The position numbers and the translations under genes are program-made. Below, piece after piece: positions 39,779 to 45,605 of a stretch of 64,000 nucleotides of DNA. How positions within the stretch are numbered: the first letter of the stretch is position 1; the number at the start of each line of letters is the position of its first letter. Where the stretch lies: NCBI RefSeq assembly GCF_003018255.1, contig NZ_CP027440.1. The stretch is one strand, 5' to 3'. The notes under the pieces were generated by a model. That model did no database searches and was not told the DNA's origin. It saw only the letters and a list, made by a program, of their open reading frames with translations. Source of the stretch: Escherichia coli (GTDB taxonomy: Bacteria; Pseudomonadota; Gammaproteobacteria; Enterobacterales; Enterobacteriaceae).

Positions 39779-40362
39779 TGGCATTCAGAATGAGTGAACA
39801 ACCACGGACCATAAAAATTTATAATCTGCTGGCCGGAACTAATGAATTTATTGGTGAAGGTGACGCATATATTCCGCCTCATACAGGTCTGCCAGCAAAC
39901 AGTACCTATATTGCACCGCCAGATATTCCGGCTGGCTTCGTGGCTGTTTTCAACAGTGATGAGGCATCGTGGCATCTCGTTGAAGATCATCGGGGTAAAA
40001 CGGTTTATGACGTGGCTTCCGGCGACGCGTTATTTATTTCTGAACTCGGCTCATTACCGGAAAATGTCACCTGGTTATCCCCGGAAGGGGAGTTTCAGAA
40101 GTGGAACGGCACAGCCTGGGTGAAAGATGCAGAAGCAGAAAAACTATTCCGGATCCGGGAGGCGGAAGAAACAAAAAACAGCCTGATGCAGGCAGCGAAT
40201 GAGCATATTGCGCCACTTCAGGATGCTGTGGATCTGGAGATCGCAACGGAAGAAGAGGCGTCGTTGCTGGCAGCATGGAAGAAGTATCGGGTGTTGCTGA
40301 ACCGTGTTGATACATCAGTAGCACCGGATATTGAGTGGCCTGCTGTCCCTGTTATGGAGTAA
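39778..40362 (+). CDS. tfa: tail fibre assembly chaperone Tfa
   Basis: 194 aa, [43 protein letters not shown]...EWPAVPVME = lambda Tfa. Confidence 0.95.
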
Positions 40363-40465
40363 TCGTTTTGAGATACGCCGCATACACGTTGTATGCAATA
40401 ACGTGCTGCGGCTTGGTAAATTTTAGCTAGTTTCAGCAGGAGACATAAAAAACTTCAATATAAGA

Positions 40466-41254
40466 TTAAGCATCACGTATTGCCAATCTGATTTTTGACT
40501 GATACCAATTGGGGCCTTCTGCAATTATTTCTTCCTCAACATGCATGATGGGATGCATTTCAATTTCAGAGTTTTTGACTTTTAGATCTAGTCCATATTT
40601 TTTTGAAATTTGTAAAACTTCATTTTTGAAATCCTTATCTGCGAAAGGTGAAATCCTTATTTCTTCCAACAGATTGTTAAGAGATACAGGGACTAGTTTT
40701 CCCTTTACAGGTGGAGTGTTAAAGGTATTCTCTTGAAAAATAGCTCTAAACTCTTTTTCGTATTCGAAAGATGGTCTCTTGTTAAAGAATACATCTGATT
40801 CTGGATTGTATTGTTTTATCCAGAAATTTTTGACGTATTTTACGTGTTTTAATTGTAGTTTGTTTAAATTATTATTTTCAAGTTGGCTTTGGAGGTTTTT
40901 TTTCTTTGATTTTATGACAACGCCTTTAGCGGGGTTTTTACAATACAGCTTCCACATAGCTTCAGATTCATGTTCGTTACAATGCCAGCAACTTATATAT
41001 GTCCTCTCGCTTATTTCCTTAAGTGTCTTTAAATTGAATGCCATGAAAGGATCTAAGTCCATGCCGGCACCATGAGTAGCGCATAGTTTTTCCTGTGTCT
41101 CAATGAATTTTTTATAGCCAGTATGTCCCCAAGCAAATTCACCTTCGAATGGATCTTCAAAATTTTTTGCTGAGCAAAAAAATAAAGCATTTTGTTCGAG
41201 TAACATAGAGAATTTCTCTATGTCAAGGTATCGCCATATATACTCAGTGTGCAT
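40466..41254 (-). CDS. DUF2971-like protein (262 aa), accessory b-region gene
   Basis: IWRYLDIEKFSMLLEQNALFFCSAKNFEDPFEGEF and YISCWHCNEHESEAMWKLYC match my recollection of the DUF2971 signature (FNDPFE ... S.W...ES.AMW..Y). AAGGAG lies 6 nt before the ATG at 41254. AT-rich. Confidence 0.65.
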   Translation of the reverse strand: MHTEYIWRYLDIEKFSMLLEQNALFFCSAKNFEDPFEGEFAWGHTGYKKFIETQEKLCATHGAGMDLDPFMAFNLKTLKEISERTYISCWHCNEHESEAMWKLYCKNPAKGVVIKSKKKNLQSQLENNNLNKLQLKHVKYVKNFWIKQYNPESDVFFNKRPSFEYEKEFRAIFQENTFNTPPVKGKLVPVSLNNLLEEIRISPFADKDFKNEVLQISKKYGLDLKVKNSEIEMHPIMHVEEEIIAEGPNWYQSKIRLAIRDA

Positions 41255-41380
41255 GATAGCTCCTTGCAATATAACTATTTCTATCTGTTCATTTGTACTT
41301 AAAAAGGATTGAGTAGCCTGAACAGTTCTATCCGTAAATATACCAGATAGAAGAGTTGTACAATAACAAATCCTCCGTAT

Positions 41381-41421
41381 AAGAACCAGCCATAATAGTC
41401 TGGTTCTTAAGGTTTTTTTTT
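41381..41421 (+). terminator. hairpin plus T9 tract (plus-strand terminator-like) between the two minus-strand accessory genes
   Basis: AAGAACCAG-CCATAATAGT-CTGGTTCTT, then AAGG and nine T (41413-41421). Confidence 0.4.
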
Positions 41422-41427
41422 GTTCGA

Positions 41428-41437
41428 GGGGGGGGGG
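41428..41437. repeat. G10 homopolymer tract
   Basis: Ten consecutive G, 30 nt downstream of the 400-aa gene's stop and ~175 nt upstream of the DUF2971-like gene's start. Confidence 0.9.
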
Positions 41438-41466
41438 CTACGATTCGTCCCCATATCGGCGATAAA

Positions 41467-42669
41467 TTAGGCTTGTACCAACGCTTCTGTTTCTGTGAGT
41501 GAAATCTGATAGCGTTTTACTGCCTCAGCAAAGGCGTGCGCGGCATCTGCATTTGATACCATATATTCTTCAGTTACCCCTGTTTGAGAATGGAAAGTAA
41601 TATTTCCATAAATGCAAATAGGGATTTGGTAGTTGTCTTTAAAACGACGGTCTGGTGAGCCATTCTTATTCGTTTTCGCCCATGTATAACCATCTATGCG
41701 TGAGTCACTGGGAACACCTTCTTCCTCATGGAATCTTAGATATTCTGAACTAATTTGTAATTCGCGTAAATCAATCAGAGCGAATGCTCCATCAGCTCGT
41801 GGTATGACTGCAACTCCAGGATAAAGCAAAATATCGTCTCCATTTACATTTTCAAACCTCATCGCACGCCCTGTAAATTGAATGAGATCCGTTGAACTAA
41901 AATCAAAGGTAACTGGGTGACGATTAACAGACCGGGTTGCTAATGTTCTTTCAGCAAACTGGTCTGTAGCTTTATCTGCAGTAATATCCCATTTTTTGAC
42001 ACTCGATTTTAACATATCAAATGCATGGACCATCGCTGCATATGCGCGCTGTGAAGCATCACTGCTCTCGAATGTTATGGCTATTTTTGTGCTGTCTTCC
42101 CATGAAACTAGGCGAGATATCTCAGCTTGGGTTAGGGGGAGTAGTGTCTCAAGTTCTGCGATGCGTCGTTTGTAAAACCAACGGAATAGACTTGATTTGC
42201 GTCGAGCCAGCTCGCTTTTTTGTTTTGATTCTTCGGCAAGAGCCTCTTGAAGATCTGCTTTTATCTCTGCTCTTTGTTCTCGTGCTTTAGCAATCAAATC
42301 TCGTAAAGGTAAAAGGGAGGTACTTGTAAGGACTTCTACCGAAGCGCTGGATATTTCATTCATGCCAGCTACAGGCATATATATTTTAGCGTTCGATGGT
42401 GTGTTTTCTGGAGATGACCCAGACTCCAAATGAGGTTCTGTAGGGGCTGGATTTAATGGATTGGTAACTGAGTATCCATCATCATAGGGCAAGGTAGGTG
42501 TAGTATAAGATAAGCCTGTGCCCGGTAATCCGACAGTTGCTCTAACCCCTTTTTTACCAACATTGACAGTTGCGCCAGGCACGCCAATGCTTGCACTTAT
42601 TCCACGCTTGCCAATGTTGAGTCGAACGCCAGGAAATAGAGTAAAGGTTTGTCTGAAACGAAGAGACAT
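41467..42669 (-). CDS. DUF4236-like N-terminal domain protein with ~340-aa uncharacterised C-terminal region
   Basis: MSLRFRQTFTLFPGVRLNIGKRGISASIGVPGATVNVGKKGVRATVGLPGTGLSYT matches the remembered DUF4236 repeat pattern. A Pro-rich linker, a predicted coiled-coil (REQRAEIKADLQEALAEESKQKSELARRK) and a beta-rich C-terminus follow. Confidence 0.65.
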   Translation of the reverse strand: MSLRFRQTFTLFPGVRLNIGKRGISASIGVPGATVNVGKKGVRATVGLPGTGLSYTTPTLPYDDGYSVTNPLNPAPTEPHLESGSSPENTPSNAKIYMPVAGMNEISSASVEVLTSTSLLPLRDLIAKAREQRAEIKADLQEALAEESKQKSELARRKSSLFRWFYKRRIAELETLLPLTQAEISRLVSWEDSTKIAITFESSDASQRAYAAMVHAFDMLKSSVKKWDITADKATDQFAERTLATRSVNRHPVTFDFSSTDLIQFTGRAMRFENVNGDDILLYPGVAVIPRADGAFALIDLRELQISSEYLRFHEEEGVPSDSRIDGYTWAKTNKNGSPDRRFKDNYQIPICIYGNITFHSQTGVTEEYMVSNADAAHAFAEAVKRYQISLTETEALVQA

Positions 42670-43114
42670 AAAGTTATACCTATGTAGTTTTGTACACCAA
42701 AGTTCGAAATGTTTTTATATGAATATTGAGCTGATTCATAAGATTATTCCTAGCTCATCTTCATTCCGCCATGATACAACGGTTTGCTTGCAGGTGAAGA
42801 AAAACGTAAAAGCCCAATAATGATTGGTGGGCTGGTGGAGTTGAAACCGCAGGCTCGTCGTCTGCAAGAAAGTGCTGCGGCTGGCTGGTCAGCTTCTGAT
42901 AGTGAGAATATTGAATGATTTCAAGCTGTTATCGATTTTGCGTATTTTTTGTATGGGAGGATTTGTGCCTCCTCCCATCGGTCCTCCATGACTTTACGCC
43001 ACTGTCTCTAGGGCTGCTATGTGCCAGAAGCTGACATGGCTAGTCCCTAGGCACATTGACCAGCAGGTCATCCATCCCTTAACATATCGTTATGAAATTT
43101 AAAGGATCGATGTT

Positions 43115-43744
43115 ATGGCTTATGAATTAACTTACAGACCCCTCGAATACGGATCGAATGAAAATTATCTTCGCAGAAGTTTGAAAGACCCTTCATTACT
43201 AATTCCTGAAAAAGAGATAGGATGTTTTCTAGTTCTCCAATCCTCATATGCACTACATGAAACTATTGGACTTTCAGCCCAAAACCTAGATATTTCATGG
43301 CAGTCTAACCAAAATTACTTATCGTCAAATTGTGATGGTGAGGCCCCTCTAGCTTGTTATCCTATTTATTTGATTACAGTTGGAGATGATGAAAATGAAA
43401 GGCTTGTTTACATCGGCAAGACATCATCGAAGAGCTCACGATTTTCTTCAGGCCATAGCGCAATTACTAAGTTACACCATCCTAAATATGACAATTTGTC
43501 AAAGCGTATATATTTGTGCTGCGTTGTTTTTTTAAAAAACAGCCAAACCATCCCAATAGAATGGATTAAGCCTTTTGATTTCGCTGAGAAACTATTGAGT
43601 GAATTTGAAGCGAACTTGATTTATTGGAATAAACCAGAGTTGAATACGCAACATATGAAGAAAGAACCTACATTTGAATATGGGCAAGTTCATGCACAAA
43701 ATGTAACTGGCGCAACGTATTTTTGGCATGATAAATTCATTTAG
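43115..43744 (+). CDS. GIY-YIG-like nuclease domain protein (209 aa) with ~80-aa N-terminal extension
   Basis: P83-I-Y...(13 aa)...Y99-I-G-K-T...R109...H114...E163/E165...N172 aligns with I-TevI GIYQIKN...VYVGSA..R..H...ERENFWIKELN. AAAGGA SD. Confidence 0.6.
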   Translation: MAYELTYRPLEYGSNENYLRRSLKDPSLLIPEKEIGCFLVLQSSYALHETIGLSAQNLDISWQSNQNYLSSNCDGEAPLACYPIYLITVGDDENERLVYIGKTSSKSSRFSSGHSAITKLHHPKYDNLSKRIYLCCVVFLKNSQTIPIEWIKPFDFAEKLLSEFEANLIYWNKPELNTQHMKKEPTFEYGQVHAQNVTGATYFWHDKFI

Positions 43745-44171
43745 AACTATATAAACAAAACTTGAGTTAATTCTCTATTTTCCGCACTTTTTTTCCAATG
43801 AGTTCTACATATTGGTCAAGATTGTGCTCAAGGGCGCAATAAACTTAGTATTGCGTCTGTAATTCGCTCAGACTGTGTGAAAACGGTTTAAGCTTCAGAG
43901 GTGAATGCAAAAGAGGCTGACGCCTGCGCTTTTAAGTAAAATCTGCATCATCTTTCTATGTAAATTTTCTAAGAAGTCATCTAAACGCGTGACCTTCTGT
44001 CAGCAATCAGAGTTTTCATACAGCCTGCGTTCGAAGCTGCCCTTGGGCCCGCCTATGGCAGTTGAGTGCCAGAAGCGGACATTTTAACTAATATTCAGCA
44101 TGTTTATCATTATGTCACACGCAAAATGATAAATTAATATATTCAGAGGATTTTTTAACTCAAAAATGGCG

Positions 44172-44199
44172 TTGTAATTCAATGAACCATGCCTATAAT
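44172..44199 (+). promoter_or_regulatory. candidate sigma-70 promoter for the DUF3800-like gene
   Basis: TTGTAA-16 nt-TATAAT, ending 39 nt upstream of the TTG start at 44238. Confidence 0.35.
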
Positions 44200-44237
44200 C
44201 TAACATAAAAATAATATATCATTGAAAGGATAAGGCT

Positions 44238-44972
44238 TTGAATATTTACATTGATGAGTCGATACACGAGGAGTTTGGGTTTATGATCTTGGCTTATGTA
44301 GTTTGTAATCAGGATCCTCAGTCTGATATATACAAGATTCTTTCAGAACATTCAGTTGATGAACATCACTCATGCGCAAGAATGGATAAATCTGAATCTT
44401 TAAGAAATTTGAGGAGTAATCTTATTTCCTACTTAAACGCAAATTGTCGATGGGGGGCATTTATTATGCCAAGTGAGTATCGCCATCGTTCTTATGAGGA
44501 TGTGTCTTTTTTATTAAGCTTATTGATTAAGAATTTTCCAGACAGGAAAGGGAATATTTTTTTCGATGAAGGTATCATAAACCCTACAGAAGCTCTCAGT
44601 CTATGCTCTGATGAAGTCAAAGTTATAACATGCTCATCCCATGAAGTTTGTGGGATACAACTTGCTGATCTAGTAGCATCTTTTAGTGGTGTTAGGTTGA
44701 GAGAAACAATAACAGGAAAAGCAAAAATTTTAACTTACGGTTACGACTTCGGCTATGAGCCCCCAATAGAATCCCCGCTTGGATTTGAGCTTTTTGCTAC
44801 ACTTCGACAATCTATGCTCAGGGGAAATGAACCTCTTGGGAATGAGATGCCTGAATTTGCCACATTTAAAACTATTAATAAAGGATTGGTTTTGTCGAAA
44901 AACTTAACAACTGAATTTAGTCAGTTGGCATTAAAAACCTTTGGGGAAGTGTACTTAGGTTGCATCCATTAA
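44238..44972 (+). CDS. DUF3800-like protein (244 aa, TTG start)
   Basis: N-terminal NIYIDESIHEEFG and later GIQLADLVA match the remembered DUF3800 hallmarks (Y.DESG ... Q.AD). AAGGA lies 8 nt upstream of the TTG. Confidence 0.6.
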   Translation: MNIYIDESIHEEFGFMILAYVVCNQDPQSDIYKILSEHSVDEHHSCARMDKSESLRNLRSNLISYLNANCRWGAFIMPSEYRHRSYEDVSFLLSLLIKNFPDRKGNIFFDEGIINPTEALSLCSDEVKVITCSSHEVCGIQLADLVASFSGVRLRETITGKAKILTYGYDFGYEPPIESPLGFELFATLRQSMLRGNEPLGNEMPEFATFKTINKGLVLSKNLTTEFSQLALKTFGEVYLGCIH

Positions 44973-45220
44973 ATGTAATATTACTATTTATCAATTACTA
45001 GCAAAATTAAGCTAGGTGTTCCTAAGAATATAGGTGACGATGATACAACTGACTTCCGCTTTTCGCTCATAACAGACATTCACTACAGTTATGGTAGAAG
45101 GTATGCATGCTGGGTGGGGAAAGTATGAAGGAAAAGAAGACTGCCGCGCCGTTTGTCGTCACATTTATCTTCATTGGCTATGCAAGTCGTAATACAAGGT
45201 GGGACAAAACAGAGACACAT

Positions 45221-45251
45221 AAGGTCTCACAAAGGTCTGCAAGGCCTCACA
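45221..45251 (+). repeat. three tandem ~10-bp repeats, candidate integrase arm-type binding sites in the att P arm
   Basis: AAGGTCTCACA / AAGGTCTGC / AAGGCCTCACA in helical phase, ~190-220 bp from the icd junction in AT-rich DNA. Confidence 0.3.
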
Positions 45252-45440
45252 TGTATTGAGATGTTAATAAAATGTAGACTTGTAATTTGGATATAAATGG
45301 TAGAGAAAACCTTTCCCCAAAATAAAAACGAACGTCAATGAAATCAAACGGTTGAATAAAGTTGATTTTGGCTAATAAAAAGACAATAAAATAATTTTTA
45401 TCATTAAATATCAATGAATTGAACTTAATGTTTTTATATA

Positions 45441-45605
45441 CTGTTACGCCATATGGGCTGGACTGAAGCCGCAGACCTGATTGTTAAAGGTATGGAAGGC
45501 GCAATCAACGCCAAGACTGTAACCTATGACTTCGAACGTCTGATGGAAGGCGCTAAACTGCTGAAATGCAGCGAGTTTGGTGATGCGATCATCAAGAACA
45601 TGTAA
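45441..45605 (+). pseudogene. icdC: displaced native 3' end of isocitrate dehydrogenase gene (icdC), marks attR
   Basis: Translates [54 protein letters not shown], the last ~54 residues of Icd, with no upstream icd sequence. 165 bp, as for the K-12 e14 icdC. Confidence 0.9.

Follow-up and report, generated by a model that had tools for sequence, protein, structure and literature searches.

T4 endonuclease II (EndoII; DenA; phrog_1111; PDB 2WSH) is a GIY-YIG enzyme of 136 residues with a short N-terminal region that carries the DNA-binding residue K12. It is the product of a lytic-phage gene and destroys cytosine-containing host DNA, and its activity is governed by cytosine modification (PMC2764454). 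PD-T4-3, or CMoRE (PDB 9U75), is a single-gene GIY-YIG type IV defence enzyme of E. coli in which an N-terminal nuclease is followed by a C-terminal sensor of 5-hydroxymethylcytosine (5hmC); it reads 5hmC, and its own host is spared by this reliance on target modification and by an acidic loop that acts as an autoinhibitor (PMC12923530). SNIPE, which joins a membrane-anchored DUF4041 to a GIY-YIG domain, and Uzume and PD-lambda-1, both reported to contain this domain, are further single-gene anti-phage systems with a GIY-YIG effector. The restriction enzymes R.Eco29kI and Hpy188I are paired with a cognate methyltransferase, and the homing endonucleases of the I-TevI/Seg type carry C-terminal DNA-binding modules (NUMOD, zinc finger or helix-turn-helix) attached through a linker. 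Here, a 209-residue open reading frame (ORF) located at 43115-43744 of a 64,000-nucleotide stretch of an Escherichia coli genome (contig NZ_CP027440.1; hereafter the window) is compared with these systems. We consider it fairly likely that this ORF encodes an active, divergent GIY-YIG DNA endonuclease that is nearest to T4 DenA, and that it has a predicted restriction-like defence function carried by a single gene.

The product is labelled 'hypothetical protein' in RefSeq E. coli (WP_039022692.1), and our literature search found no paper on the family or on EndoII-like defence genes. If the proposed function is correct, the gene would belong to a family of single-gene anti-phage nucleases that has not been catalogued and is missing from PADLOC. 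Such a family would connect T4 EndoII, a classic weapon of a phage, with genes carried in the defence loci of bacteria and prophages.

A divergent GIY-YIG core with a complete active site

The product of the ORF contains all of the catalytic residues of the superfamily and adopts a GIY-YIG fold (Table 1). The first-pass annotation of the window had recognized the order and spacing of the core by eye, and this is borne out by script-verified numbering (P83-I84-Y85, 13 residues, Y99-I100-G101-K102-T103, R109, H114, E163, E165, N172 and N177), by conservation and by a sub-threshold alignment to Pfam PF01541 (residues 83-174 against positions 3-74 of the 78-column profile; E 0.0022, 18.7 bits). 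A regular expression for the ordered motif matches none of 20,000 shuffles of the protein, and of the 146 six-frame ORFs in the window that reach 100 residues it matches the GIY-YIG ORF alone.

Y85, Y99, G101, T103, R109, H114, E165 and N177 are among the positions that are invariant in 44 homologues. In a larger set of 109 sequences, which reaches down to approximately 21% identity, Y99, G101, R109, E165 and N177 still show no variation, and conservation is 90% or higher at Y85 and H114. The glutamate had initially been assigned to E163/E165 and the asparagine to N172; E165 is indeed the conserved glutamate, but E163 is not conserved, and the conserved asparagine is N177, the residue at position 172 being a serine in a 98%-identical copy. 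The family consensus at the GIY position is PIYLITVG. In the predicted structure, the strands 84-89 and 96-102 carry the GIY and YIG motifs and form the characteristic hairpin, E165 sits in the helix 154-172, the Arg-Glu-Asn set of the superfamily is in place, and the three-dimensional fold of the core is that of solved GIY-YIG domains.

Sub-threshold Pfam matches (best E 0.0012) recur in the family, to PF01541 in 15 of the 44 members and to PF20815 in 21 of them; for the query itself the PF20815 match has an E value of 0.03 and 14.7 bits, against a cutoff of 22.4, and a search of NCBIfam gave no match. The conservation of the active-site columns is decisive for the GIY-YIG identity where the sequence signal alone is sub-threshold.

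T4 endonuclease II as the nearest characterized relative

To compare the family with EndoII, a profile was built from T4 denA (taken from the T4 record) and 36 EndoII homologues from IMG/VR, and was aligned by hhalign. The family matches this profile with 88.5% probability (E 2.7e-6, 92 columns; residues 78-183 against EndoII 38-144), and the 109-sequence alignment does so with 92.5%, whereas the reversed control gives 0.1% and none of 20 column shuffles exceeds 7.1%; when EndoII is aligned to a profile of T4 Seg/I-Tev catalytic domains, the probability is only 4.7%. G101, R109, E165 and N177 align with G49, R57, E118 and N130 of EndoII, and the first three of these EndoII positions are published functional residues (PMC2764454). 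Furthermore, the PHROG match of the query is phrog_1111 (E 0.0043, 17.9 bits), which EndoII itself matches at 2.3e-65 and 219.7 bits, so that phrog_1111 is the EndoII family. The profile match, the alignment of functional residues and the phrog_1111 match together identify T4 EndoII, on sequence comparison, as the closest characterized relative, and the scores are those of a sister family and fall short of membership: the phrog_1111 match is not a strong one, and the protein is not an approximately 136-residue product of a lytic T4-like phage. The motif alignment to I-TevI that had been drawn by eye stands, but I-TevI is replaced by EndoII as the reference relative.

Unlike EndoII, the protein has an acidic extension of 82 residues and an additional conserved tail of 29 residues. 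The family also differs in its habitat, as it is found in the cargo regions of prophages, on plasmids, in integrons and in defence islands, and tblastn found no family match in 50,697 deposited phage genomes. The habitat bears on the possibility that the gene is a phage-side offensive nuclease of the EndoII kind, which would degrade host or competitor DNA during lytic growth for nucleotide recycling and would give the lysogen no protection. We regard this as unlikely: beyond the absence from deposited phage genomes, many copies are not phage-borne at all (they sit within a BREX-like operon, as an integron cassette, on an integrative conjugative element or in chromosomal islands that hold restriction-modification, Hachiman or DarTG genes), and the copy in the window has its own promoter at the prophage end near attR, behind two cargo genes of opposite strand, which is the usual position of a moron expressed in the lysogen. 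In addition, the host phage is temperate and has no evident DNA modification with which to protect itself.

The protein also stands apart from the other GIY-YIG defence enzymes. CMoRE likewise lacks a methyltransferase, but its nuclease is N-terminal, whereas the protein studied here has a C-terminal core (83-180) and no separate sensor domain; its motif reads P-I-Y85-L-I87 (PIYLI), in contrast to the GIYxY-YIG of CMoRE with its third tyrosine. No PADLOC match to PD-T4-3 was found and PDB profile searches did not retrieve CMoRE. The PD-T4-3 family, which had been offered as a possible home for the protein, is thus not supported by domain order, motif, or profile and structure comparison. Unlike SNIPE, the protein contains neither DUF4041 nor any other Pfam domain and has no PADLOC match, it is much shorter than SNIPE-type systems, and its model is a compact soluble fold. 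Overall, the family is an uncharacterized branch of GIY-YIG enzymes related to EndoII, and it makes a good candidate for a defence nuclease encoded by a single gene.

Terminal extensions of the core

The acidic N-terminal region had been regarded as an unassigned 80-residue domain. In the full-length model it has a predicted local distance difference test (pLDDT) score of approximately 90 and contains a strand of 10 residues at 37-46, but when its 82 residues are folded alone with their own alignment, the pLDDT drops to 68.9 and the strand 37-46 is lost. We conclude, from model confidence and not from coordinates, that the extension probably packs on the core and is not an autonomous domain; no consistent Pfam relative was found for it in the query or in the 44 members. 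Because the majority of 72 homologues align across 85-100% of the query, the N-terminal region belongs to the family. Its family-specific conserved positions are L10, E34, G36, L58, W62, Y68, P78 and C81, its net charge is negative in 91% of the 44 members (median -5.5), and Firmicute members contain an additional acidic-rich insertion of approximately 20-30 residues. In distant relatives that bear other N-termini, no Pfam domains were found.

The C-terminal tail contains an HxQN-type motif whose N196 is at least 90% conserved, and phrog_16890 spans residues 75-209. According to the models, the 82-residue acidic N-terminus and the 29-residue tail are family-specific elaborations that co-fold with the core.

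A single gene that moves alone

The gene forms a self-contained unit, has a promoter-like site of its own and moves alone. The sigma-70-like sequence pattern travels with it: in the copy on a Klebsiella phage-plasmid, the 75 bp upstream of the start codon, including this site, are 75% identical, and the protein is 73% identical. Beyond this 75-bp stretch, no small ORF or non-coding element conserved across taxa was found on the 5' or 3' side, and an Rfam scan of the flanks gave no match. A toxin-antitoxin pair was considered and is unsupported, given the lack of a conserved small partner ORF or element in the flanks across taxa.

The extent of the mobile unit is seen in an IMG/VR prophage contig (L033), which shares 42957-44080 of the window (1124 bp) at 97% identity and has different neighbours; in a blastn comparison, only distant tail-fibre genes are otherwise similar. 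The DUF3800 gene that follows in the window is absent beside the cassette in this contig, and is unlinked to the GIY-YIG gene elsewhere. On the other side, strain D97-1 has the DUF2971-DUF4236 gene pair without the GIY-YIG gene in another integrative element at tRNA-Thr, with a different gene next, and its homology with the window ends at 43037. Copies of the D2 direct repeat bracket the cassette (Table 1). The 17-mer core of the repeat occurs twice in the window versus 0.06 copies expected; the 17-mer is restricted to the E. coli copies and is no general site.

Copies of the gene are found in prophages and phage-plasmids, on integrative elements, in integron arrays and in defence islands of the chromosome. 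The Vibrio campbellii homologue occupies a single cassette within a chromosomal integron array, between two attC-like repeats. This array (L011, 1-13325) comprises approximately 19 cassettes with attC-like repeats of about 125-150 bp (TAACAA...GCGTTA); its other cassettes encode HNH, DUF2971, acetyltransferase and glyoxalase proteins, as well as a T5orf172/MUG113 protein, which belongs to another GIY-YIG-type family.

A free-standing, homing-type selfish endonuclease, which would spread its own cassette by cutting cassette-less alleles with no benefit to the host, might be expected to leave some of these traces. Membership in the GIY-YIG superfamily, a patchy phyletic distribution (19 loci among 185,579 species representatives), the sharp exchange boundaries of a 1.1-kb cassette and the short direct repeats at its flanks are all consistent with homing, and nuclease genes are known from phage recombination boundaries (PMC10448857). 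Against this, Pfam finds the core only, and the 29 residues that follow it leave the protein without the DNA-binding module of the I-TevI/Seg enzymes; hhalign against a T4 Seg/I-Tev profile gave 1.4%, a weak negative since the profile has five members. Moreover, the flanks are non-homologous between taxa, so that classical homing would have no template, and the presence of the gene as an integron cassette and within a BREX-like operon suggests that other mobility systems have captured it. Homing is accordingly a rather improbable explanation, and the initial description of a stand-alone GIY-YIG-type nuclease with no classical homing arrangement is supported by the single-gene cassette and the lack of a recurrent partner gene.

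For 29 non-redundant loci, all ORFs of at least 70 residues within 10 kb of the gene were clustered in search of partner genes. Apart from a tyrosine recombinase, present in 8 of the 29 loci, no neighbour recurs. In particular, there is no recurrent methyltransferase cluster, and the methyltransferases that do occur nearby are parts of complete systems of the type I, BREX-like or MmeI kind. This speaks against an orphan Type II restriction endonuclease like Eco29kI or Hpy188I, with its methyltransferase encoded elsewhere or lost, as does the movement of the cassette alone between hosts, which would be lethal for a sequence-specific enzyme without its methylase. PDB profile searches also detected no sequence similarity to Eco29kI, and none to Hpy188I was seen; such an origin is very unlikely.

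Known defence, restriction or toxin genes lie within 8-10 kb of the gene in 14 of the 18 annotated non-redundant contexts, a tally that has no genome-wide background rate and is therefore suggestive and not statistical. In Paraclostridium, hsdR-M-S is immediately upstream and a McrBC-like pair is downstream. In Variovorax sp. (L028, 4845-18450), a BREX-like operon carries the homologue in line: the gene in the brxC position precedes it, a PglX-like methyltransferase gene follows, and the gaps are 13 and 5 bp. Further along come an AAA/SMC ATPase and then GmrSD, a type IV enzyme. Pfam supports the identity of BrxB, the methyltransferase and GmrSD, and BrxC is assigned from position and size. 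Hachiman (HamA and helicase) and BREX genes accompany the Thauera copy, an OLD-family nuclease gene is directly upstream in Niallia, and DarT with a Macro-domain protein (DarTG) is found in Guptibacillus. Further neighbours are Mrr in Photobacterium, HEPN, HNH and integrase genes in Priestia, NERD, Vsr and a BglII restriction-modification system in Cytobacillus, AbiEi and RES in Vibrio kanaloae, DndB in Paenibacillus, and a NERD-like nuclease gene on an Alkalihalophilus plasmid. The Billgrantia copy lies in an integrative conjugative element bearing MmeI, and in the window itself the neighbouring DUF2971 gene matches the defence candidate PDC-S31.

Distribution and selection

A profile search of 1.84 billion cluster representatives retrieved 252 members at E ≤0.001, mostly of 210-250 residues and aligned end to end. 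The loci in species representatives come from Gamma-, Beta- and Deltaproteobacteria and Bacillota, and from metagenome-assembled genomes (MAGs) labelled Fibrobacter, Bacteroidetes and Nitrospinota. IMG/VR contributes 4 loci and plasmids 7, and six of the seven plasmids are Klebsiella IncFIB replicons of approximately 110 kb with phage-type replication genes. A 100% identical gene occurs in E. coli chromosomes, and 35 of 5,426 complete genomes carry the gene. The ratio of nonsynonymous to synonymous substitution rates (dN/dS), at 0.235 for the comparison with the Klebsiella copy and 0.08 for that with an Aeromonas copy, indicates purifying selection.

This distribution is difficult to reconcile with a housekeeping DNA repair or recombination nuclease (UvrC-, Cho- or Slx1-like, or structure-specific) that happens to reside on mobile DNA. 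The family is very rare and patchy, it is always found in accessory DNA and it carries no repair-type partner domains; a repair role is thus barely plausible.

Two individual loci deserve mention. In a Nitrospinota MAG (L029, 1573-3592), the homologue is a pseudogene, split at the GIY motif by an insertion of approximately 1.3 kb that encodes a 388-residue IS4-like transposase on the opposite strand. In an Iningainema sp. MAG (L032, 537-1046), a distant relative shares the YIGKTS and PELN motifs and lacks the N-terminal extension, and its C-terminal tail resembles small ribbon-helix-helix ORFs that adjoin BREX genes in the loci L016 and L028. The 'Bacillus-1/2' GIY-YIG groups (Dunin-Horkawicz et al. 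2006) could not be matched to the family from the text.

A predicted defence role and the sparing of host DNA

Judging from its genomic context, the cassette gene is probably a single-gene anti-phage nuclease. In the mechanism that we propose, the nuclease would be made from the resident prophage in the lysogen and would nick or cleave incoming phage DNA or other foreign DNA. Double-strand cutting would need a dimer or a tetramer, as in EndoII, Eco29kI and Hpy188I, because the GIY-YIG domain has one active site, and the terminal extensions are likely oligomerization or DNA-contact elements.

Intact E. coli copies persist without a methylase, an antitoxin or any other partner, hence host DNA would have to be spared by target chemistry or by latency. 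In the first case the enzyme would recognize foreign DNA, for example by base modification, and in the second it would be inactive until infection. As a speculation on latency, the acidic extension might block the DNA-binding face, in the way proposed for the acidic loop of CMoRE. A more specific form of this idea, which we hold only tentatively and regard as doubtful, is a sensor-less, single-polypeptide defence nuclease of EndoII stock in which the acidic N-terminus would be a DNA-mimicking lid over a promiscuous nickase, freed upon infection or by foreign DNA chemistry. With such a lid, the cassette could enter any host setting, whether a prophage, an integron or a BREX operon, without a methylase or an antitoxin.

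Several observations weigh against an active defence nuclease. The PF01541 score of 18.7 bits is below the superfamily cutoff of 22.6, Foldseek comparison of the model with PDB and BFVD returned nothing significant, and a PDB profile search with the 44 sequences retrieved only UvrC, at E 0.22. The same search with 109 sequences retrieved nothing. Single UvrC and I-TevI sequences gave no signal when hhalign compared them with the family, and this comparison was disregarded. The lack of a Foldseek match and the UvrC-only profile result are the reason for which the family is regarded as a divergent branch. The overall pI of 6.0 makes the protein acidic, which is uncommon among DNA-binding nucleases, and its nearest relative, EndoII, is a phage weapon directed at host DNA and provides no host defence. 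PADLOC recognizes neither the query nor the 44 members, apart from three weak PDC-S14 matches (E 0.012), the 14 of 18 contexts are to be read with the reservation given above, and both the defence function and the mode of host sparing are inferred. The defence reading nevertheless remains the one that we favour.

The mobility of a bare 1.1-kb cassette without a protective partner raises the question of how a small, probably promiscuous nuclease avoids the host chromosome. Since the cassette is short, has its native promoter and encodes clear catalytic residues, this question is directly testable.

The prophage locus and its cargo slot

In the RefSeq annotation of one genome with the identical gene, the order of the lambdoid prophage is gpJ, Lom, tail fibre, tail-fibre assembly, cargo, partial icd and iraM. 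Within the cargo region, DUF2971 (-), DUF4236 (-), a small ORF, the GIY-YIG gene (+) and DUF3800 (+) follow one another, with a G+C content of approximately 35%, versus 50-60% in the tail genes. The whole region, with this combination of modules, is present in 30 of the 5,426 E. coli genomes. The coordinates of all features are collected in Table 1.

Table 1. Features of the GIY-YIG gene and its prophage surroundings, in window coordinates
Feature	Position	Strand	Details
EndoII-like GIY-YIG ORF	43115..43744	+	ATG start, 209 aa and stop codon
N-terminal extension, aa 1-82	43115..43360	+	acidic, net charge -5, pI 4.5
GIY-YIG catalytic core, aa 83-180	43361..43654	+	from Pfam, conservation and EndoII alignment
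C-terminal tail, aa 181-209	43655..43741	+	conserved strand, family motif [VI]H[IVA]QN at aa 192-196
Y85 codon	43367-43369	+	catalytic
Y99 codon	43409-43411	+	catalytic
R109 codon	43439-43441	+	catalytic
H114 codon	43454-43456	+	catalytic
E165 codon	43607-43609	+	catalytic
N177 codon	43643-43645	+	catalytic
Ribosome-binding site AGGA	43103..43106	+	8 nt 5' of ATG, read directly from the sequence
Sigma-70-like promoter	43056..43085	+	TTGACC, 18-nt spacer, TAACAT; sequence pattern
Single-gene cassette, 1124 bp	42957..44080		promoter, ORF and 336 bp of 3' non-coding DNA
D2 direct repeat, left copy, 30 nt	43008..43037	+	homology with other cargo islands ends at 43037
D2 direct repeat, right copy	44053..44082	+	80% identical; right end of the cassette, before the DUF3800 gene
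DUF2971 gene	40466-41269	-	PADLOC candidate PDC-S31, E 2.4e-20
DUF4236 gene, 400 aa	41467-42669	-	pairs with DUF2971 as a separate two-gene cargo module (40466..42669)
DUF3800 cargo gene	44238..44972	+	TTG start; weak PADLOC match PDC-M04A, E 6.5e-5
icd 3' fragment, duplicated	45453..45605	+	partial isocitrate dehydrogenase, then iraM; marks the right attachment site of the prophage

The interval from the tail-fibre assembly gene to the icd fragment (40363-45452) is a modular cargo slot in which modules are bracketed by short direct repeats; besides D2, a second pair is formed by 40378-40413 and 42847-42882 (81% identity). Two sequences within the slot are widespread. The first, of 194 bp (42844-43037), is present in 5,384 of the 5,426 complete E. 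coli genomes, with a median of 2 and up to 9 copies, and the second, of 205 bp (45055-45259), in 3,965 complete E. coli genomes. In strain ARL09/232 the two together flank a HEPN gene, and one or the other is found behind pinE in an e14-like element, and also near an AAA ATPase and HNH pair by ybhB-bioA. Both have the look of junctions at which cargo is exchanged by recombination. In other strains the slot is occupied by other cargo, for instance a HEPN gene. As a side result, the icd-proximal end of the lambdoid prophage is a modular cargo slot, with junction sequences that are found again in nearly every E. coli genome and border different defence-like genes.

A 44-residue ORF at 42784-42918 (+; WP_001297180.1, hypothetical protein) overlaps the repeated junction sequence and is probably an annotation artefact and not a gene. 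Inside the tail-fibre assembly gene, 40121-40319 (+) matches Rfam IS009 over its full length (203 bits, against a gathering score of 117). Finally, a G+C-rich hairpin (GGGAGGA, 7 nt, CCTCCTCCC) is located at 42955-42976, at the left edge of the 1124-bp cassette.

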